From a virus, in the UHGV virus genome UHGV-0038498: a DNA stretch of 64,000 nucleotides; one strand, 5' to 3'. Positions 3,715 through 63,865 of this stretch are shown here, in pieces. The first letter of the stretch is position 1, and each line of letters starts with the position of its first letter. The translations under genes were made by a program, and so were the position numbers. The notes under the pieces are model-generated. The model was not told the origin of the DNA. It was given only the letters and a program-made list of their open reading frames with translations, and ran no database searches.

Positions 3715-3840
3715 TATAAATAATAATATGAATTGGGTTTCAATTCTATGTGGTAGTCTACAACTGAGAGATCTGTCGAAAGAAGATGAAATTCAGAAGA
3801 ACGTGACTACCGAGTTTTAATCTCTAACGAGAATTTTTAA

Positions 3841-4089
3841 ATGATTAAACAATTACAACACGCTCTTGAACTGCAACGAAACGCATGGAATAATGGTCAC
3901 GAAAACTATGGCGCATCTATTGATGTTGAAGCCGAAGCTCTTGAAATCCTGCGTTATTTCAAACATCTGAATCCTGCTCAAACTGCATTAGCTGCTGAGC
4001 TTCAGGAAAAAGATGAACTTAAATATGCTAAGCCTCTGGCTTCTGCCGCACGAAAAGCAGTTCGTCACTTTGTGGTAACACTGAAGTAA
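3841..4089 (+). CDS. rIII: rIII lysis-inhibition accessory protein
   Basis: 82 aa, position immediately after gene 31 as in T4. Confidence 0.7.
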   Translation: MIKQLQHALELQRNAWNNGHENYGASIDVEAEALEILRYFKHLNPAQTALAAELQEKDELKYAKPLASAARKAVRHFVVTLK

Positions 4090-4208: not shown

Positions 4209-4385
4209 ATGGCAAAACAAGCTAAAGCAAAGAAAGCAGTTGAAAAGAAAGTTGGTGATTCTAAACGCGCTGGTTACAAGCGTGGGTCGAACTCTCGTAT
4301 CAATCAAACTGTTGAGAAGATCATGCGCCGAGCACGTGCGGTTCTTCGAGATGATGCTTCTCGTTTTGGTAAGCAGAAAGCATAA
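4209..4385 (+). CDS. small basic protein (58 aa)
   Basis: ATG at 4209 (MAKQAKAKK...) with purine-rich RBS; followed by strong terminator hairpin 4391-4419. Confidence 0.45.
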   Translation: MAKQAKAKKAVEKKVGDSKRAGYKRGSNSRINQTVEKIMRRARAVLRDDASRFGKQKA

Positions 4386-4390
4386 GTTGA

Positions 4391-4419
4391 GGACTCCTTC
4401 GGGAGTCCTTTTTTATTTT
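4391..4419 (+). terminator. rho-independent terminator
   Basis: Hairpin GGACTCC-TTCG-GGAGTCC followed by TTTTTTATTTT. Confidence 0.75.
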
Positions 4420-4438
4420 CCAAAGATTGCATAAAGTT

Positions 4439-4488
4439 GTTTACAGTATAGTTCCTTTGTGATAGTATTATCTTACACAAACAAAGGA
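4439..4488 (+). promoter_or_regulatory. early promoter with inverted repeat around -10; 3' arm overlaps RBS
   Basis: GTTTAC 4439-4444, TAGTAT 4463-4468; arms TCCTTTGT 4453-4460 / ACAAAGGA 4481-4488 (includes AAGGAG RBS of ORF 4496). Confidence 0.6.
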
Positions 4489-4495
4489 GAATAAA

Positions 4496-4864
4496 ATGAA
4501 AATCAATCTTAACTCATACATCAAAGGTAAAGATCACGACGGCTATAAAGCTATCGAAACTAAAGAACTTCAGTGGCATTTATATAAAGAACAATTTGAA
4601 TTCGTAGATTGTATGACTCCTGAAGGTCCTTCTGATGATTTCTCTTGGAAAATAATGTTAACTAACTTTTTTACTGGAGATACATACGAATTAAAAACTT
4701 TGATTCTTGGTAAAATTCGCTGTGAGACTTATGAAGATAAAGAAACTGGTTACTCTGAAGATGTTACATGGTATCAAAATGGTCGTATTACCGCTGACCT
4801 CTTGATTGAAAAAATGAAAGCCAAAGGTGAATTAAATTTAGATAATTGGATTAAAGTTGCATAA
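4496..4864 (+). CDS. hypothetical early protein (122 aa)
   Basis: AAGGAG RBS; own early-type promoter upstream. Confidence 0.55.
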   Translation: MKINLNSYIKGKDHDGYKAIETKELQWHLYKEQFEFVDCMTPEGPSDDFSWKIMLTNFFTGDTYELKTLILGKIRCETYEDKETGYSEDVTWYQNGRITADLLIEKMKAKGELNLDNWIKVA

Positions 4865-4868
4865 AATA

Positions 4869-4908
4869 GTTTACTTTGGTACAGGATATGATATTATATA
4901 CCTGTACC
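4869..4908 (+). promoter_or_regulatory. early promoter with inverted repeat around -10
   Basis: GTTTAC 4869-4874, TATTAT 4893-4898; arms GGTACAGG 4878-4885 / CCTGTACC 4901-4908. Confidence 0.6.
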
Positions 4909-4934
4909 GCAATTAAACATCTTGGAGAATAAAA

Positions 4935-5300
4935 ATGAACTACATCAACTTTGAACGTAAATATGTTTCTAATGGTATTGCAGGTTCTATTGATACTATC
5001 TGCCTTTGGAAACATCAAAATGGATCAGTATGCGAAATTGAACAGTATATGACTCCTAACTACGTTTATATGCGATTTGAAAATGGCATCACGGTTTCAA
5101 TCACAATGGAAGGTTCCAACTTCAAAATTGCTTTGGATGATGATTTTCGTCAACGCGATTTAGGGACTCATCCTTGCTGGAATGGCGTTAATCGCAAGCT
5201 TCTGGTTAAAACTTGGATTCGTCATATTCTGAGTAACAGAGCTAAACCTGAGCATCTTGAAGCAATCTTTGATGTAGTTCTTAACGAATTTGATATTTAA
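4935..5300 (+). CDS. hypothetical early protein (121 aa)
   Basis: GGAG RBS; own early-type promoter upstream. Confidence 0.55.
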   Translation: MNYINFERKYVSNGIAGSIDTICLWKHQNGSVCEIEQYMTPNYVYMRFENGITVSITMEGSNFKIALDDDFRQRDLGTHPCWNGVNRKLLVKTWIRHILSNRAKPEHLEAIFDVVLNEFDI

Positions 5301-9095: not shown

Positions 9096-9103
9096 TATAA
9101 ATA
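9096..9103 (+). promoter_or_regulatory. late promoter (TATAAATA) for alt
   Basis: Exact TATAAATA 21 nt upstream of alt ATG, after terminator hairpin. Confidence 0.65.
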
Positions 9104-9123: not shown

Positions 9124-11220
9124 ATGATGGAACTCATTACAGAATTATTTGACGAAGATACTACTCTTCCGATTACAAACTTAAATCCAAAGAAGAAAAT
9201 ACCGCAAATTTTTTCAGTTCATGTTGATGACGCAATTGAACAACCAGGATTTCGTTTATGTACCTATACATCTGGAGGTGATACTAATCGCGATTTAAAG
9301 ATGGGCGATAAAATGATGCATATTGTTCCTTTTACATTAACTGCTAAAGGTTCAATTGCTAAATTAAAAGGTCTCGGTCCAAGCCCAATTAATTATATCA
9401 ATTCAGTTTTTACTGTTGCGATGCAGACGATGCGTCAGTATAAAATTGATGCATGTATGCTCCGTATTCTTAAGTCTAAAACTGCTGGTCAAGCTCGTCA
9501 AATTCAACTTATTGCTGATAGACTTATCCGTAGTCGCTCAGGTGGCAGATACGTCCTTCTTAAGGAACTCTGGGATTACGATAAAAAGTATGCATATATT
9601 CTTATACATCGCAAAAATGTATCATTAGAAGACATTCCAGGAGTTCCTGAAATTAGTACCGAGCTCTTTACTAAAGTTGAATCGAAGGTCGGTGATGTTT
9701 ATATCAATAAAGATACTGGAGCTCAAGTAACTAAAAATGAGGCAATTGCAGCATCTATTGCGCAAGAAAACGATAAACGTTCTGACCAAGCTGTAATCGT
9801 TAAAGTTAAAATTTCCCGTAGAGCAATTGCACAAAGTCAGTCATTGGAATCTTCTAGATTTGAAAGTGAATTATTCCAGAAGTATGAATCTACTGCAGCT
9901 AATTTCAATAAACCTGCTACCGCTCCTTTAATTCCCGAAGCGGAAGAAATGAAACTTGGAATTAATTCACTAGCTTCTAAAACTAAGGCAGCAAAAATCA
10001 TTGCCGAAGGAACTGCAGATGAACTTCACTATGATTATAAATTCTTTTCAAAAAGTGAGGTTAATGAAGTTTCTGAAAAAATTAAAGATGTAATTCTTAA
10101 TGCGATTAAAAATGAACCAACTACTTCAATAAAATGTTTAGAGAAATACGCAGCAGCTATTAATAAATTCTTTGAAGAATACAAAGATACTTGGCTTGAT
10201 AAACATAATAAAACCCGTAAAGGACAGCCAGATGAAGTTTGGGAAGAAATAACTAAAAATTCCTGGAACGCAGCAAAAACTAAATTCCTCAAACGAATGA
10301 TTTATAGCTTTTCTGGAATTGGTGCAGGTCCAATGATTGATATTACTATTGCCCGTGATGGTTCGAAATATACTCCATCACAAAAGCGCGGCATTAGAGA
10401 GTATTGTGGTTCAGGATATACTGACATCAATAATCTTCTTTTAGGACGCTACAATCCAGAACGATATGATGTAATGAGTGAAAAAGAAATTGAATCTGCT
10501 ATAAATAACTTAGATTCAGCTTTTGAAAATGGTGACCGTATACCGGAAGGCATTACAGTTTATCGTGCTCAAAGTATGACTGCTCCTATATACGAAGCAT
10601 TAGTTAAAAATAAAGTGTTCTATTTCAGAAATTTTGTATCTACTTCTTTAACTCCTATCATTTTTGGACGTTTTGGAATTACACATGCTGGTATTGGTCT
10701 TTTAGAACCAGAAGCTCGTAATGAATTAACAGTTGATAAAAATGAAGAAGGAATAACTATTAATCCAAACGAAATAAGAGCGTATAAAGAAAATCCTGAA
10801 TACGTTAAAGTTCAAATAGGATGGGCAATTGATGGAGCTCATAAAGTTAATGTTGTATATCCAGGAAGTCTCGGAATAGCAACCGAAGCTGAAGTTATTC
10901 TACCACGCGGATTGATGGTCAAAGTTAATAAAATAACTGATGCTTCTAATAATGACGGAACAACATCTAATAATACAAAACTCATTCAAGCTGAAGTTAT
11001 GACTACGGAAGAACTCACCGAATCAGTAATTTATGACGGTGACCGTCTAATGGAAACCGGCGAAGTAGTTGCAATGACAGGTGATATTGAAATAGAAGAC
11101 AGAGTTGACTTTGCATCATTTGTTTCATCAAATGTTAAACAAAAAGTAGAATCATCTCTTGGAATTATTGCGTCTTGCATAGATATTACAAACATGCCTT
11201 ACAAGTTCGTTCAAGGATAA
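9124..11220 (+). CDS. alt: Alt-type ADP-ribosyltransferase (capsid-packaged)
   Basis: 698 aa; N-terminal MELITELFD targeting-like sequence; R-S-EXE motifs (VYRAQ, FVSTSL, EAEVILPRG); TATAAATA 21 nt upstream. Confidence 0.85.
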   Translation: MMELITELFDEDTTLPITNLNPKKKIPQIFSVHVDDAIEQPGFRLCTYTSGGDTNRDLKMGDKMMHIVPFTLTAKGSIAKLKGLGPSPINYINSVFTVAMQTMRQYKIDACMLRILKSKTAGQARQIQLIADRLIRSRSGGRYVLLKELWDYDKKYAYILIHRKNVSLEDIPGVPEISTELFTKVESKVGDVYINKDTGAQVTKNEAIAASIAQENDKRSDQAVIVKVKISRRAIAQSQSLESSRFESELFQKYESTAANFNKPATAPLIPEAEEMKLGINSLASKTKAAKIIAEGTADELHYDYKFFSKSEVNEVSEKIKDVILNAIKNEPTTSIKCLEKYAAAINKFFEEYKDTWLDKHNKTRKGQPDEVWEEITKNSWNAAKTKFLKRMIYSFSGIGAGPMIDITIARDGSKYTPSQKRGIREYCGSGYTDINNLLLGRYNPERYDVMSEKEIESAINNLDSAFENGDRIPEGITVYRAQSMTAPIYEALVKNKVFYFRNFVSTSLTPIIFGRFGITHAGIGLLEPEARNELTVDKNEEGITINPNEIRAYKENPEYVKVQIGWAIDGAHKVNVVYPGSLGIATEAEVILPRGLMVKVNKITDASNNDGTTSNNTKLIQAEVMTTEELTESVIYDGDRLMETGEVVAMTGDIEIEDRVDFASFVSSNVKQKVESSLGIIASCIDITNMPYKFVQG

Positions 11221-11223
11221 ATC

Positions 11224-13281
11224 ATGGAACTTATTACAGAATTATTTGACGGCGCTTCGGCGCCGGTTGTTAACTTAAATCCTAAGCATAAAATACCTCA
11301 AATTTTTGCTATTCAAGCCGGCGAAGAAAGTGTGCTTCCTGGATTTAGATTTTGTACATACACCTCTGGCGGTGATACAAATAAAAACGTTAAGCCAGGC
11401 GATAAAATGATGCATATCGTAATGATAGGTGTTAATGAGAAACTATCATTAGTTAAACTTAAAAACTTGGGTGGAAATCCAATTGGTGTCATTAATGCCG
11501 TTTTTGATACTGCTCTTCAAACAATGAAACAGTATAAAATTGACGCATGCTTATTCCGCGTACTAAAAAGTAAAACAAATGGCGCAGCTCGTCAAATGCA
11601 AGTTATTGCTGACCGTTTAGTACGTACTAAAGGAGCAGGTCGATATGTTCTTTTAAAGGAAATCTGGGATTATGATAAAAAGTATGCATATATTATGGTT
11701 TACCGTAAAAATGCCAATTTAGAAGACATTCCAGGTGTACCTCCTATTTCAACTGAGTTATTCACAAAAGTTGAATCAAAGGTTGGTGATGTGTATGTAG
11801 ATGTTAAAACAGGTAATGCTGTTCCTAAAGCTGTTGCTGTTGCTGCTTCTATTGCCTTAGAAAATGATAAGCGCACGGATCAAGCTGTTATTCAGAAAAC
11901 TAAAATTAGTCGTCGATTAGCAGCGCAAGCTCAATATTCTACTGTCGATGCTTCACTACAGAGTGATAGCTTCGCTGCCAAGAAATATCAAGAGTTTGAA
12001 TCTAAAGTTCCGGTACATAAAGCAGAAGGACCAATGAACTCTGGCGTTATTCAGATTGGTTCAAACTTCGGCAAAGGAGCTATCGGTGGTATGAGAAGTG
12101 CTTCTCGTTTTAAATCTAACGATTATGAACTAGAAAGCTTCCGAAATCATATTGCATTGGCCCATGCACGTTTACGTGATCCATCTATCAAGCTGCAGAG
12201 CGATATAACATATCAAGGTTCTCAAGAATATTTAAAGAATAAAGAATTTTTTGATTATAAAACCGATAAAATTTTGAGCGATCTCGCTGACATTAATATT
12301 TCTAATAGCTTTGATGTTATTAAGAAAATTATCAATGATTTAGTTAAAGGTTCTAAAGCTACGCCAGACGAAAAGGTAGCTATTATTCAATTTGTCATGA
12401 ATGGCATTTATAAATTGATTAATGAATCTGCTGCCCAGGCGTATGAATACGCAAGCACCGAAGTAACTCCAAAAGGACTGACTCAGGCTGAGTCTGATGT
12501 AATTGAAGATTATTGTGCAGATTCATATGTTGAAATGAACTCGTTCCTCTTGGGTAAACCAGATTCTACCCGTGAAGAATACATGGAACGAGCTATTAAA
12601 CACATCGAGACAATGGATTCTGCCTTTGCCAAAGGTTCAGTTCTTCCTCCAGGAACTACGCTTTATCGTGGACAAGAAGTTACTTTTAAAACTTTACGCC
12701 ATAATATTGAAAATAAAATGTTCTATTTCAAGAACTTCGTATCAACATCGCTTAAACCAAATATCTTCGGTGAGCATGGTAAAAACTATATGGCTCTAGA
12801 TGATTCCGGCGCAGTATTTTCTGGTGAAGGAGAAGGTTCTGTTGATGCTGAAGATTTAATGCATATGGGTAGTCATTCTGCTTATGCGAATGAAGATGCT
12901 GAAACTAGCGTAGGTATGGTAATTAAAGGGGCTGAGCGAATCAAAGTTATCGTTCCAGGTCATTTATCAGGATTTCCATCAGAAGCTGAAGTTATTCTAC
13001 CGCGTGGAATTTTGTTGAAGATTAATAAAGTAAGCACGTACATGATGAAAGAAACTGCTTATAACAAGTATCTAATCGAAGGCACAATCGTTCCTCCTTC
13101 TGAACAATTAGAAGAATCGGTATATGATGGCGATCATCTAATGGAAACTGGTGAAGTTCGTCCAATGGCTGGGTTTAATCAATTCCTTGTAGAAGAATCA
13201 AAAGAAGAGGAAAACGAAGTTTCTCAAATCTTGGCTTCTTTGGTTAACATCAACGGAATGTCTAAAAAGTTCAAGATGTAG
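11224..13281 (+). CDS. Alt-like ADP-ribosyltransferase paralog
   Basis: 685 aa; same N-terminus (MELITELFD) and R-S-EXE motifs (LYRGQ, FVSTSL, EAEVILPRG); central ~250 aa diverge from upstream copy. Confidence 0.8.
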   Translation: MELITELFDGASAPVVNLNPKHKIPQIFAIQAGEESVLPGFRFCTYTSGGDTNKNVKPGDKMMHIVMIGVNEKLSLVKLKNLGGNPIGVINAVFDTALQTMKQYKIDACLFRVLKSKTNGAARQMQVIADRLVRTKGAGRYVLLKEIWDYDKKYAYIMVYRKNANLEDIPGVPPISTELFTKVESKVGDVYVDVKTGNAVPKAVAVAASIALENDKRTDQAVIQKTKISRRLAAQAQYSTVDASLQSDSFAAKKYQEFESKVPVHKAEGPMNSGVIQIGSNFGKGAIGGMRSASRFKSNDYELESFRNHIALAHARLRDPSIKLQSDITYQGSQEYLKNKEFFDYKTDKILSDLADINISNSFDVIKKIINDLVKGSKATPDEKVAIIQFVMNGIYKLINESAAQAYEYASTEVTPKGLTQAESDVIEDYCADSYVEMNSFLLGKPDSTREEYMERAIKHIETMDSAFAKGSVLPPGTTLYRGQEVTFKTLRHNIENKMFYFKNFVSTSLKPNIFGEHGKNYMALDDSGAVFSGEGEGSVDAEDLMHMGSHSAYANEDAETSVGMVIKGAERIKVIVPGHLSGFPSEAEVILPRGILLKINKVSTYMMKETAYNKYLIEGTIVPPSEQLEESVYDGDHLMETGEVRPMAGFNQFLVEESKEEENEVSQILASLVNINGMSKKFKM

Positions 13282-13333
13282 TTTACAAGTCCCTCGTGTT
13301 GTGTTATAGTAGTTTTACTGACATAACATGAGG
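13281..13333 (+). promoter_or_regulatory. early promoter with inverted repeat around -10; 3' arm overlaps RBS
   Basis: GTTTAC 13281-13286, TATAGT 13305-13310; arms CCTCGTGTT 13292-13300 / AACATGAGG 13325-13333 (one G-U), 3' arm carries GAGG RBS. Confidence 0.55.
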
Positions 13334-13341
13334 AACACAAA

Positions 13342-13632
13342 ATGAAATCTTCTTTACGCTTTTTAGGTCAAGAACTTGTAGTTGAAGGCGTTATTCCTGC
13401 TGATAACGCTTTTAATGAAGCAGTTTATGATGAATTTATCAAAATTTTTGGAACAGATAAAAAGTTCGGAATTTTTCCTTCTGAAAATTTTTCAAAGCCA
13501 GAGCAGACTGAAAGCATTTTCCAAGGTGTAGTAACAGGTAAATTTGAGTCAGAAGCTCCGGTAAAAATTGAAGTTTACATTGAAGACAGTTTAGTTGCTT
13601 CAGTTGCTGCTTTTATTTCATTCCGTAAATAA
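13342..13632 (+). CDS. hypothetical early protein (96 aa)
   Basis: GAGG RBS; early-type promoter 13281-13310; terminator hairpin downstream. Confidence 0.5.
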   Translation: MKSSLRFLGQELVVEGVIPADNAFNEAVYDEFIKIFGTDKKFGIFPSENFSKPEQTESIFQGVVTGKFESEAPVKIEVYIEDSLVASVAAFISFRK

Positions 13633-13637
13633 AAATA

Positions 13638-13655
13638 TGGGGACCTTTCGGTCCC
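13638..13655. terminator. bidirectional terminator hairpin between convergent ORF 13342-13632 and gene 54
   Basis: GGGGACC-TTTC-GGTCCCC flanked by A/T runs on both sides. Confidence 0.6.
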
Positions 13656-13660
13656 CATTG

Positions 13661-60880: not shown

Positions 60881-60920
60881 GTTTACACGCTGATGAGGTA
60901 GTGATACTATTATCTCATCA
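60881..60920 (+). promoter_or_regulatory. early promoter upstream of ipI with inverted repeat around -10
   Basis: GTTTAC 60881-60886, TACTAT 60905-60910; arms TGATGAG 60891-60897 / CTCATCA 60914-60920. Confidence 0.6.
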
Positions 60921-60940
60921 AAATTAATTAGGAAAATAAA

Positions 60941-61228
60941 ATGAAAACTTTCAAAGAGTTTACTTCTACAACTACCCCGGTTTCTACCATTACCGAAGCT
61001 ACTCTTACTTCTGAAGTTATTAAAGCAAATAAAGGACGAGAAGGTAAACCCATGATTAGCTTGGTTGATGGCGAAGAAATCAAAGGTACTGTTTACCTAG
61101 GTGATGGGTGGTCTGCTAAAAAGGATGGTGCTACAATCATTATCTCTCCTGCTGAAGAAACTGCGTTGTTTAAAGCTAAACACATTTCTGCGGCACATCT
61201 CAAGATTATTGCTAAAAATCTTTTGTAA
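60941..61228 (+). CDS. ipI: internal protein I (capsid-packaged anti-restriction protein)
   Basis: 95 aa; MKTFKEFTSTTTPVSTITE... matches remembered T4 IpI precursor; early promoter upstream. Confidence 0.8.
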   Translation: MKTFKEFTSTTTPVSTITEATLTSEVIKANKGREGKPMISLVDGEEIKGTVYLGDGWSAKKDGATIIISPAEETALFKAKHISAAHLKIIAKNLL

Positions 61229-61246: not shown

Positions 61247-61284
61247 GTTTACATAGGGTTTTAGTTGTGATACTATTACCCTAT
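61247..61284 (+). promoter_or_regulatory. early promoter with inverted repeat around -10
   Basis: GTTTAC 61247-61252, TACTAT 61271-61276; arms ATAGGGT 61253-61259 / ACCCTAT 61278-61284. Confidence 0.6.
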
Positions 61285-61304
61285 CAACTACCGAGGAGAA
61301 TAAA

Positions 61305-61490
61305 ATGAAACGTTGTGAATTAATTCGAAATGTTGCTATTGCAATTTCTGCTTCCGCTTTTAGTTTTTCAATGTTTGTTGGATTTATATGCGGATTATTG
61401 ACTACAGCAGAAAATGTTTTTTCACTTGTAGTAGCATTTTTAATTGGTTTAATTGCTATCGTTATGGATAAAATTTCTAAAGGTGAATAG
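61305..61490 (+). CDS. small hydrophobic membrane protein (61 aa)
   Basis: GAGGAGAA RBS; two predicted hydrophobic helices; early promoter upstream. Confidence 0.45.
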   Translation: MKRCELIRNVAIAISASAFSFSMFVGFICGLLTTAENVFSLVVAFLIGLIAIVMDKISKGE

Positions 61491-62917: not shown

Positions 62918-63004
62918 GCGAGAATGGTCAAATTGGTAAAGGCACAGCACTTAAAATGCTGCGGAATGATTTCCTTGTGGGTTCGAGTCCCACTTCTCGC
63001 ACCA
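62918..63004 (+). tRNA. tRNA-Leu (anticodon UAA)
   Basis: Cloverleaf by eye: acceptor GCGAGAA/TTCTCGC, anticodon loop cTTAAAa, long variable arm, 3' ACCA. Confidence 0.85.
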
Positions 63005-63009
63005 AATTT

Positions 63010-63083
<74 letters not shown>

Positions 63084-63093
63084 ATTTAATTTA

Positions 63094-63167
63094 CTCCGTG
63101 TAGCTCAGTTTGGTAGAGCGCCTGATTTGGGATCAGGAGGTCCAAGGTTCAAATCCTTGTATGGAGA
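63094..63167 (+). tRNA. tRNA-Pro (anticodon UGG), no encoded CCA
   Basis: Acceptor CTCCGTG/TATGGAG (with G-U pairs), anticodon loop tTTGGGa, T-loop GTTCAAATC. Confidence 0.75.
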
Positions 63168-63169
63168 CT

Positions 63170-63259
63170 GGAGGCGTGGCAGAGTGGTTTAATGCACCGG
63201 TCTTGAAAACCGGCAGTCGCTCCGGCGACTCATAGGTTCAAATCCTATCGCCTCCGCCA
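63170..63259 (+). tRNA. tRNA-Ser (anticodon UGA)
   Basis: Acceptor GGAGGCG/CGCCTCC, anticodon loop cTTGAAaa, long variable arm, 3' GCCA. Confidence 0.85.
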
Positions 63260-63264
63260 GTTTT

Positions 63265-63340
63265 GCTGATTTAGCTCAGTAGGTGGAGCAACTCACTTGT
63301 AATGAGAAGGTCGGCGGTTCGATTCCGTCAATCAGCACCA
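63265..63340 (+). tRNA. tRNA-Thr (anticodon UGU)
   Basis: Acceptor GCTGATT/AATCAGC, anticodon loop cTTGTAa, T-loop GTTCGATTC, 3' ACCA. Confidence 0.8.
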
Positions 63341-63341
63341 A

Positions 63342-63416
63342 GGCCCTGTAGCTGGAAGGTTCAAGCAAGCGACTCATAATCGCCAGATGGTGGTTCAATT
63401 CCACCCAGGGCCACCA
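63342..63416 (+). tRNA. tRNA with CAU anticodon (Ile via lysidine, or Met)
   Basis: Acceptor GGCCCTG/CAGGGCC, anticodon loop cTCATAa, T-loop GTTCAATTC, 3' ACCA. Confidence 0.75.
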
Positions 63417-63429
63417 AATTAAGAATTAA

Positions 63430-63516
63430 GGGGAGTTATCCCGTAGAGGTAGCGGTGTGGACTGTAAATCCATTGTCATTGCGACTCGGGTGGTTCGACT
63501 CCATCACTCCCCACCA
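63430..63516 (+). tRNA. tRNA-Tyr-like (anticodon GUA), class II with long variable arm
   Basis: Acceptor GGGGAGT/ACTCCCC, anticodon loop cTGTAAa, T-loop GTTCGACTC, 3' ACCA; D-arm irregular. Confidence 0.6.
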
Positions 63517-63520
63517 ATTT

Positions 63521-63595
63521 GGATGTGTAGCTCAATGGCAGAGCGATCGCCTGTTAAGCGATTGGTTATAGGTTCGAATCCTATCACGTCCGCCA
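63521..63595 (+). tRNA. tRNA-Asn (anticodon GUU)
   Basis: Acceptor GGATGTG/CACGTCC, anticodon stem ATCGC/GCGAT with loop cTGTTAa, T-loop GTTCGAATC, 3' GCCA. Confidence 0.7.
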
Positions 63596-63709
63596 AATTT
63601 GTGACAACTGTCACATTAATATCTACTTGACGCGATTATAGGGGTTGAACTGATCACTCTTCTCTTAATTTCGTGTGAAGACATCTTGATTGTTGGAGTA
63701 GGTATTAAT

Positions 63710-63785
63710 GTGGCCGTAGTTCAGTTGGTAGAACTCGAGATTGTGATTCTCGTAGTCATGGGTTCGACTCCCATCGGTCACCCCA
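63710..63785 (+). tRNA. tRNA-His (anticodon GUG)
   Basis: Acceptor GTGGCCG/CGGTCAC, anticodon stem CGAGA/TCTCG with loop tTGTGAt, T-loop GTTCGACTC, 3' CCCA. Confidence 0.65.
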
Positions 63786-63789
63786 ATTA

Positions 63790-63865
63790 CGGGGCATAGC
63801 TCAGAAGGAAGAGCAAGGACCTTCTAAGTCCTAGGTCGTAGGTTCGATCCCTACTGCCTCGACCA
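63790..63865 (+). tRNA. tRNA-Arg (anticodon UCU)
   Basis: Acceptor CGGGGCA/TGCCTCG (C1-G72), anticodon stem AGGAC/GTCCT with loop cTTCTAa, T-loop GTTCGATCC, 3' ACCA. Confidence 0.75.

Follow-up and report, generated by a model that had tools for sequence, protein, structure and literature searches.

Hairpins spanning early promoters in a T4-like phage are predicted to hide the ribosome-binding sites of alt.-3 and a 30.8-type gene in read-through transcripts

Two hairpins that span an early promoter and the next ribosome-binding site

The 64,000-nucleotide (nt) stretch of the UHGV virus genome UHGV-0038498 analysed in this study (the window) carries two early-type promoters that each lie inside an inverted repeat, one ahead of alt.-3 (site 1) and the other ahead of a 30.8-type open reading frame (ORF; site 2), and in both cases the 3' arm of the repeat contains the Shine–Dalgarno sequence (SD) of the gene that follows (Table 1). 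Judged by similarity to known genomes, the window is a stretch of a Tequatrovirus genome, that is, of a T4-like phage. Its G+C content is about 35%, and about 500 Tequatrovirus genomes match the segment 12800-13900, in which site 1 lies, at 92-99% identity, with phages HY01 and PEC04 being the closest (98.9%). The plus-strand gene order is T4-like (31.2, 31.1, 31, rIII, 30.9, 30.8 ... 30, alt.1, two alt paralogs, alt.-3), and genes 54 and 48 come after alt.-3 on the minus strand. Since T4 carries nearly unchanged sequence at both sites, its annotated genome was used for the genome-wide tests described below.

Table 1. Coordinates of features at the two sites and at the other strict early promoters of the window (MFE, minimum free energy).
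Feature	Position	Strand	Remarks
Late-promoter motif TATAAATA	3715-3722	+	upstream of rIII (3841-4089)
Site 2 intrinsic terminator	4389-4410	+	UUCG-loop hairpin, then T run; behind 30.9-type ORF ending at 4385
Site 2 -35 element GTTTACA	4439-4445	+	
Site 2 5' arm UUCCUUUGU	4452-4460	+	in promoter spacer
Site 2 -10 element TAGTAT	4463-4468	+	predicted start A4475
Site 2 3' arm ACAAAGGAG	4481-4489	+	includes SD AAGGAG, 4484-4489
30.8-type ORF, 122 amino acids	4496-4864	+	ATG at 4496
Late-promoter motif TATAAATA	9096-9103	+	ahead of first alt paralog (9124-11220), after GGCC-TTCG-GGCC hairpin behind alt.1
Second alt paralog (ADP-ribosyltransferase)	11224-13281	+	TAG stop 13279-13281 overlaps G of -35 element
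Site 1 -35 element GTTTACA	13281-13287	+	T4 early-type promoter
Site 1 5' arm CCUCGUGUUGUGUU	13292-13305	+	in promoter spacer, upstream of predicted start
Site 1 -10 element TATAGT	13305-13310	+	top of hairpin; predicted start A13317
Site 1 3' arm GACAUAACAUGAGG	13320-13333	+	includes SD GAGG, 13330-13333
alt.-3 ORF, 96 amino acids	13342-13632	+	ATG at 13342; ribosome-binding site in hairpin
Two-way terminator hairpin	13637-13658	both	between alt.-3 and gene 54; first plus-strand terminator past alt genes
Early-promoter hairpins tight on -10, SD free	1044-1104, 4869-4935, 60881-60941, 61247-61305	+	MFE -14.2 to -19.4; z -2.2 to -4.8

A sequence-only reading of this DNA had noted the repeats at 13292-13333 and 4453-4488, and both are confirmed as real and beyond chance. 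At site 1, the main stem (13292-13305 with 13333-13320) comprises 14 bp, three of them G·U, and is extended by an inner 4-bp stem (13308-13311 with 13319-13316) and by outer pairs of 13289 and 13290 with 13336 and 13335, so that the helix is nearly continuous over about 18-20 bp. At site 2, the stem joins 4452-4460 to 4489-4481; the pairing noted earlier is its Watson–Crick core, to which U4452·G4489 adds one pair. The site 1 element folds with an MFE of -23.0 kcal/mol (z -5.49; -17.2 for the antisense strand) and the site 2 element with -12.1 kcal/mol (z -2.94), and in neither case was any of 200 dinucleotide shuffles as stable. The SDs that the sequence-only reading had assigned to the 3' arms, GAGG for the ORF at 13342 and AAGGAG for the ORF at 4496, are located within the predicted stems.

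Transcription starts were predicted from the promoter consensus, by a +1 rule that reproduces the coordinate in the name of the T4 promoter Pe133295. At both sites, the 5' arm lies upstream of the predicted start and would therefore be contained only in read-through RNA. The cost of opening the SD-AUG region, defined as the free energy required for positions -14 to +3 to become single-stranded, is 14.1 kcal/mol in read-through RNA and 3.2 kcal/mol in promoter-started RNA at site 1, and 8.5-9.5 versus 0.6 kcal/mol at site 2; RNA beginning at either predicted +1 is unstructured, with a fold of 0 kcal/mol. These values bear out the earlier suggestion that a transcript with both arms could sequester the ribosome-binding site, while one lacking the 5' arm would leave it free. 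When only the 17-nt promoter spacer was permuted, the cost fell to 5.19 ± 1.96 kcal/mol at site 1 and 3.65 ± 1.65 kcal/mol at site 2, and the observed costs of 14.1 and 9.5 kcal/mol were reached in 2 and 7 of 2000 permutations, respectively. Read-through RNA at site 2 allows a further weak pairing, of the -35 region (4436-4445) with the start codon and first codons (4497-4507), which adds to the occlusion.

To put these energies on a scale, we calculated the opening cost for 226 annotated early-strand genes of T4, for which the median is 4.0 kcal/mol and the 95th percentile 13.5 kcal/mol. The experimentally established T4 cases have costs of 15.7 (e), 15.7 (gene 49), 14.7 (I-TevI) and 9.3 kcal/mol (soc), and for the lysozyme gene e the hairpin is reported to lower translation about 100-fold (PMC3014915). 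T4 alt.-3 ranks tenth with 14.1 kcal/mol and T4 30.8 seventeenth with 12.0 kcal/mol (10.6 kcal/mol in the comparison across lineages, Table 2). By opening cost, both sites are as well hidden as the proven T4 cases.

Early-promoter hairpins in T4 and in other genera

The early-promoter pattern GTTTAC-N16-18-TAnnnT occurs 42 times on the early strand of T4 and three times on the other strand, and 39 of the early-strand matches have an SD and an ATG behind them. Each of these 39 promoter segments (-35 to -1) was combined with its own leader and, for comparison, with those of the other 38 promoters. The mean opening cost is 6.66 kcal/mol for the cognate pairs and 4.66 ± 0.31 kcal/mol for the chimeras, and a cost of at least 10 kcal/mol is found at 11 of the 39 cognate promoters, where 2.2 are expected; neither the mean nor the count was reached in any of 50,000 permutations. 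The excess persists when duplicated cassettes are removed, when the SD alone is considered and when a longer context is folded. The eleven promoters are those of alt.-3, alc, 30.8, regB, modB, denV, nrdC.8, ndd.4, motB.2, mrh.2 and e.8. All of them except e.8 are among the 19 most occluded T4 start sites, of which they make up ten, with regB, modB and nrdC.8 occupying ranks 1-3. Other highly occluded T4 starts, at 13-16.6 kcal/mol, have no embedded early promoter: 75374 (gene 1), 71918 (segB), 116428 (gene 26, within the part of T4 that corresponds to the window), 45612 (I-TevII), 165497 (ac) and 5595 (39.1).

Promoter-to-ATG segments as a group are unusually structured, folding at a mean of -13.7 kcal/mol as against -8.5 kcal/mol for random early-strand windows, and 36% of them, compared with 1.8% of the random windows, reach -18 kcal/mol or lower. 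Averaged over the 39 segments, sense folds exceed their antisense counterparts in stability by 3.4 kcal/mol, and over the eleven by 6.1 kcal/mol (Wilcoxon 6.7e-5 and 0.004), while the difference in random early-strand windows is 1.6 kcal/mol. This systematic asymmetry suggests that selection has acted on the RNA of the sense strand and not on the DNA. It bears directly on the idea that the repeats act as DNA, as a cruciform or as a palindromic protein-binding site that modulates the promoter. A repeat does bracket the -10 box at every one of the six strict early promoters of the window, as such a role would have it; the G·U pairs, however, would be G·T mismatches in DNA (C·A on the other strand), and the arms differ among promoters and share no binding motif. 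With G·U content and strand asymmetry both disfavouring a DNA-level palindrome, we give this explanation hardly any weight.

Chance is a further alternative, in which the promoter consensus (TGTG before the -10 element, pyrimidine-rich spacers) meets purine-rich SDs and the resulting pairing is kept by descent without having a function. Chimeric pairs already show an average SD pairing probability of 35%, the divergence among Tequatrovirus genomes is too small for covariation, and conservation across genera is patchy, all of which such an origin would accommodate. It fits poorly with the rarity of spacer permutations that reach the observed costs, with the genome-wide excess over permuted pairs, with the surplus of very stable promoter-to-ATG folds and with the consistently greater stability of the sense RNA; moreover, other genera obtain the same arrangement from unrelated sequences. 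We consider an absence of function quite improbable.

Divergent relatives were obtained by tblastn against a phage collection, since IMG/VR yielded near-identical phages only. Every alt.-3 and 30.8 homologue examined has kept an early promoter directly upstream, and the hairpin, as far as the sequences tell, is conserved patchily across genera (Table 2). Different lineages have different arms at their 30.8 promoters, and in Kosakonia phage 305 the alt.-3 spacer would pair with the start codon and the following codons instead. Pooled over the non-Tequatrovirus loci, the cognate opening cost is 5.99 kcal/mol versus 4.54 ± 0.46 kcal/mol for chimeras (p ~0.001, for 24 loci that are not independent). 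Taken at sequence level, the comparison shows recurrent re-invention and not classical covariation.

Table 2. Predicted pairing across early promoters in T4-like lineages, with the opening cost in read-through and in short RNA (kcal/mol).
Gene	Lineage	Pairing	Read-through / short
alt.-3	Tequatrovirus	as in the window	14.1 / 3.2
alt.-3	Kosakonia phage 305	spacer GAATGAACGUGUU with AUG and codons 2-4	15.1 / 3.5
alt.-3	RB69, IME08, Marfa, Ursula, Melville, AS6, EcS1	weak or absent	2.8-6.3 / 2.1-4.1
30.8	T4	UUCCUUUGU / ACAAAGGAG	10.6 / 0.1
30.8	IME08	UCUCCGGU / ACUGGAGA	1.7 / 0.7
30.8	VR25-like	UCCAGUG / CACUGGA	
30.7	AS6, Melville, Ursula	CUCCGUUGUAU / AUACAACGGAG	17-18.5 / 0.5-1.3

The alt.-3 promoters with a weak or absent hairpin instead carry a small palindrome, CCACA-N4-TGTGG, inside the spacer. 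It is seen (e.g. CCACAAGGATGTGG) in the alt.-3 spacers of RB69, IME08, Marfa, EcS1 and Ursula and also at T4 50937 and 2422, and may represent either a conserved hairpin of the spacer or a site for binding.

Read-through transcription and a proposed translational gate

Whether the hairpins matter depends on transcripts that enter them from upstream. The sequence-only reading had assumed terminators ahead of both sites, which holds for site 2 but not for site 1, where the terminator scan found no terminator-like site on the plus strand between 9124 and 13636. Since the stop codon of the second alt paralog overlaps the -35 element and the first terminator follows only behind alt.-3, any alt mRNA must contain both arms; without a terminator, read-through at site 1 is unavoidable. 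At site 2, the terminator stands ahead of the promoter, and the hairpin can therefore act only on transcripts that escape it. The late-promoter motif ahead of the alt paralogs, as expected for a virion-packaged protein, probably gives rise to late transcripts that continue across both alt genes and into alt.-3, and the motif upstream of rIII is a possible source of late transcripts heading towards site 2. The scan picked up the terminators at 4389-4410 and 13637-13658 but neither of the promoter-bracketing hairpins, and a reading of these two hairpins as intrinsic terminators was rejected, as neither is followed by a U run; behind the site 1 hairpin the sequence continues with AACACAAAAUGAAAUC.

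Based on the thermodynamics, the statistics and published proteomics, we propose that the two elements are translational gates that tell transcripts apart by their start point. In this hypothetical scheme, (i) a polymerase arriving from upstream transcribes both arms, and the hairpin folds once the 3' arm emerges, burying the SD, so that alt.-3 or the 30.8-type ORF would be poorly translated from read-through RNA; (ii) the embedded early promoter starts transcription between the arms and would yield RNA with an unstructured leader of 25 nt (site 1) or 21 nt (site 2) and a free ribosome-binding site; (iii) T4 early promoters are switched off after a few minutes, when upstream middle and late promoters are still firing, the relevant one at site 1 being the late promoter of the virion protein Alt; and (iv) the net effect would be to restrict synthesis to the first minutes of infection. 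That the hairpins keep read-through RNA from being translated, and thereby limit expression to the transcripts of the early promoter itself, we hold to be somewhat better than an even bet (probability about 0.55). Such a function is plausible on these predictions, and cheap to test.

The time-course proteome of T4 (Wolfram-Schauerte et al., PMC9697503) allows the expected timing to be compared with protein levels. Alt.-3 is detected from 1 min, reaches about 1-1.6e9 at 5 min and is flat near 1.9e9 from about 12 min, while Alt climbs from about 1-4e7 to about 1e9 between 5 and 30 min. The 30.8 protein is flat from 3 min, with rIII increasing about 250-fold; RegB reaches its plateau by 5 min and ModB is flat from 3 min, and their respective upstream neighbours vs.3 and modA.2 are still increasing (PMC9697503). 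In that study, whose classes are based on onset, the proteins of alt.-3, 30.8, regB, denV, modB, nrdC.8, motB.2, alc and e.8 belong to the 'early protein' class and that of mrh.2 to the 'middle' class, these being the ten of the eleven SD-hiding genes that were looked up, and the upstream neighbours are 'middle' or 'late' in eight of nine cases. These patterns match the prediction of the proposed gate and support it without deciding the matter.

The close spacing of genes and promoters also invites a reading as a translational-coupling gate, in which ribosomes that terminate on the upstream ORF open the stem and thereby let others onto the downstream ORF at a fixed ratio. In seven of the strongest T4 examples, 2-11 nt separate the upstream stop codon from the -35 element and no terminator intervenes, and site 1, with the alt stop at the -35 element and likewise no terminator, follows the same layout. 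The leading edge of a ribosome, however, lies near +15 from the P-site codon. With its A site on the TAG at 13279-13281, which lies 11 nt ahead of the main stem, a ribosome would extend no further than about 13291 and open the two outer pairs; the 14-bp stem would stay intact, which makes coupling unlikely, and at site 2 the upstream stop is 67 nt away from the 5' arm. The late increase of Alt without Alt.-3 (PMC9697503) is the opposite of what coupling would produce, and we regard it as very improbable.

A role in RNA stability or processing, be it protection of a 3' end after cleavage, an RNase III site or the shielding of GGAG from RegB, would draw on other properties of the elements. RegB cleaves GGAG in the SD regions of early mRNAs (PMC3014915), and the 3' arm of site 2 contains this motif; site 1, on the other hand, has GAGGA. 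The nearly continuous helix at site 1 also speaks for such a role, and many early promoters have a stable hairpin just upstream of a free SD, where cleavage at the SD would leave an upstream fragment ending in a hairpin. The rival leaves unexplained why an arm pairs with the SD or AUG in several unrelated sequence solutions. A role in stability or processing is, in our view, improbable.

Several observations weigh against the proposed silencing of read-through translation. The main caution comes from the six strict early promoters of the window, at all of which a hairpin brackets the -10 box: four of them (-35 elements at 1044, 4869, 60881 and 61247) close tightly on the -10 box and leave the SD free, so that the SD is reached only at sites 1 and 2 and its coverage could be a by-product of some other purpose. 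T4 early promoters show the same split, with the tight design found, for example, at T4 57954, 20576, 65763 and 73903. Site 2 has the weaker of the two hairpins and lies behind a strong terminator. Nor is SD hiding significantly enriched at terminator-free junctions in T4, as an upstream terminator is present at 3 of the 11 SD-hiding promoters and at 6 of the 28 others, although none of the eight strongest has one. Cognate and chimeric pairs do not differ in the mean probability of upstream pairing by the SD (0.356 vs 0.348, p 0.39), since weak pairing with an SD is within reach of nearly every pyrimidine-rich spacer; only the stability of the pairing carries the signal, and pairing probability was replaced by opening cost, the physically relevant quantity. 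Among ten Tequatrovirus sequences, in which the site 1 3' arm is invariant, the stem shows no compensatory double changes, their divergence being too low for covariation; three pairs have changed on one side without loss of pairing, and two are unpaired in some sequences. The alt.-3 hairpin is weak or absent in RB69 and the six phages listed with it in Table 2. The proteome is equally well explained by the shut-off of early promoters combined with either RegB or termination, and the literature within reach holds no experiment that compares translation from the long and the short RNA.

More tentatively, we extend the proposal to the eleven SD-hiding promoters, about a quarter of the early promoters of T4. 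These may form an 'immediate-early lock', with each gene translatable only from its own early transcript and silent in later read-through RNA, and with early-promoter shut-off and RegB cleavage of exposed SDs completing the timer. The arrangement would have arisen repeatedly, from unrelated sequences, in several T4-like genera, and would explain part of the mismatch between RNA and protein time courses. This wider version is possible, although we would sooner bet against it than for it.

Relation to known hairpin systems

The closest parallels are the T4 genes e, soc, 49 and I-TevI (PMC3014915), and the sequence-only reading was right both in pointing to e and soc and in stating that the embedded promoter is of the early type in the window. 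In the known cases, as at sites 1 and 2, the SD and/or AUG is paired in RNA started upstream, and a promoter between the arms produces a short RNA without the 5' arm (from predicted starts in our case), which in the known cases is translated; the predicted occlusion energies are equal and the phage lineage is the same. The promoters embedded in those hairpins, however, are late (gp55-dependent, TATAAATA), and the hairpin blocks translation from early and middle read-through RNA so that the protein appears late. The late motif TATAAATA is absent from both hairpins of the window, whose embedded promoters are of the early type GTTTACA-N17-TAnnnT, and the logic would be inverted, with protein made early only. 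The 5' arm, furthermore, lies within the -35/-10 spacer itself. For want of a late embedded promoter, we do not assign the two sites to the e/soc/49/I-TevI group and describe them only as working alike.

Both elements also have the structure that defines the PeSL cassettes of T4-type phages, compact units of a strong early promoter, a stem-loop, an SD and an ATG that are repeated in the genome and border variable ORFs (Arbiol et al. 2010, PMC2839356; Comeau et al. 2014, PMC4122927). Site 2 also has a terminator stem-loop just upstream of the promoter, and the stems of RB49 and phi1 may overlap the -10 box. PeSL stems have been read as terminators or attenuators and as recombination substrates (PMC2839356, PMC4122927). 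The PeSL of T4 and PST is drawn with the stem upstream of the promoter, and the SD forms the 3' end of the cassette outside the stem, with no translational role proposed; at sites 1 and 2, in contrast, the SD lies within the stem.

If this published reading were transferred to the window, the stem-loops would attenuate or terminate upstream transcription and provide recombination homology, and coverage of the SD would be incidental to a long arm and a leader of 21-25 nt. Much about the cassettes agrees with this. The stems of RB49 and phi1 often lie between the -35 and -10 elements or over the -10 box, and one PeSL stem lowered the expression of a downstream lacZ as strongly as rrnB T1 (PMC2839356). 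The site 1 unit of promoter, hairpin and SD occurs twice per genome, ahead of alt.-3 and alc, in about 500 Tequatrovirus records; in T4, the alt.-3 copy is at 123057 and the second at about 136300, ahead of alc, which encodes an inhibitor of host transcription. T4 and the window have identical site 2 cassettes, even though the ORF behind it is only 39% identical to T4 gp30.8 (L001 9922-10254) and matches the homologues in phages G9062 (100%) and IME08 (91%), which looks like an ORF swap behind a conserved cassette. The four window promoters with -10-bracketing hairpins and a free SD would also be in keeping with a cassette function. Against attenuation stands the absence of a U run behind either hairpin, which makes intrinsic termination unlikely, and at site 2 a canonical terminator, distinct from the hairpin, already stands 29 nt upstream of the -35 element. 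A self-sufficient hairpin would be expected to hug the -10 box, whereas the SD-covering hairpins have 5' arms early in the spacer and large loops; their occlusion energies match those of the proven translational cases, and the excess over chimeras is specific to the SD-AUG window. Incidental SD coverage of this kind is unlikely as the whole explanation, and the mobility of the cassettes is compatible with the proposed gate, as it does not exclude a translational role.

Two further systems share parts of the arrangement. At sigG of Bacillus subtilis, a large hairpin present only in RNA started upstream (spoIIGA-sigE read-through) is proposed to block translation and separates two temporal programmes (PMC5942855); unlike at our sites, it concerns a single cellular gene with unrelated sequence whose own promoter is the later-acting one. 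In Aeh1 mobE and in T4 segB and I-TevII (cited in PMC3014915), genes transcribed together with the one upstream of them, the ribosome-binding site is masked by a local hairpin, and segB and I-TevII score high in our T4 ranking; those hairpins, in contrast to the ones described here, restrain selfish endonuclease genes. The sites match no curated RNA family (riboswitch, thermometer or leader) in Rfam, whose covariance models reached their gathering score in the window for tRNAs only and gave no match in 13200-13420 at E values up to 1.

The principle of a promoter within a hairpin is known, and what seems new is that the embedded promoter is early. We found no description of early-promoter hairpins that hide an SD in the literature covered, which did not extend to Miller et al. 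2003 and older promoter surveys (Liebig and Rüger 1989), and the wider class seemingly has gone undescribed, although the phage is very well studied. For temporal gene control in phages T4 serves as the reference system, and its accepted structure-based translational controls are the four late-gene cases. If our proposal is true, the same trick is used in mirror image, switching proteins off after the first minutes, and covers tightly dosed regulators such as the RegB nuclease, the ModB ADP-ribosyltransferase and the transcription inhibitor Alc. It would then offer a concrete and testable cause for the published temporal decoupling of T4 transcripts and proteins, a functional rationale for the compact promoter cassettes by which genes are shuffled among T4-like phages, and a small portable part for synthetic biology, namely a promoter that translationally insulates its gene from upstream transcription.

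Some observations concern the wider gene context. The two alt genes (9124-11220 and 11224-13281, plus strand) are tandem full-length ADP-ribosyltransferase paralogs; T4 has one alt and the remnants alt.-1 and alt.-2 in their place, and two copies are also found in G9062, IME08 and Ursula. Ten tRNA genes are clustered at 62918-63862 on the plus strand (Rfam tRNA matches of 30-74 bits), compared with eight in T4. Six T4 early promoters (27044, 55348, 70660, 146839, 163637 and 167050) share a near-identical leader, ACAACTATCAACTACTGATACGGATTTGGAGAATAAAATG, that looks like a repeated 5' untranslated module. Lastly, an early promoter, an SD and an unannotated 20-codon ORF (ATGTTCGCACC...TAA) lie at T4 146107-146004, between frd.2 and frd.1 and ahead of the latter.

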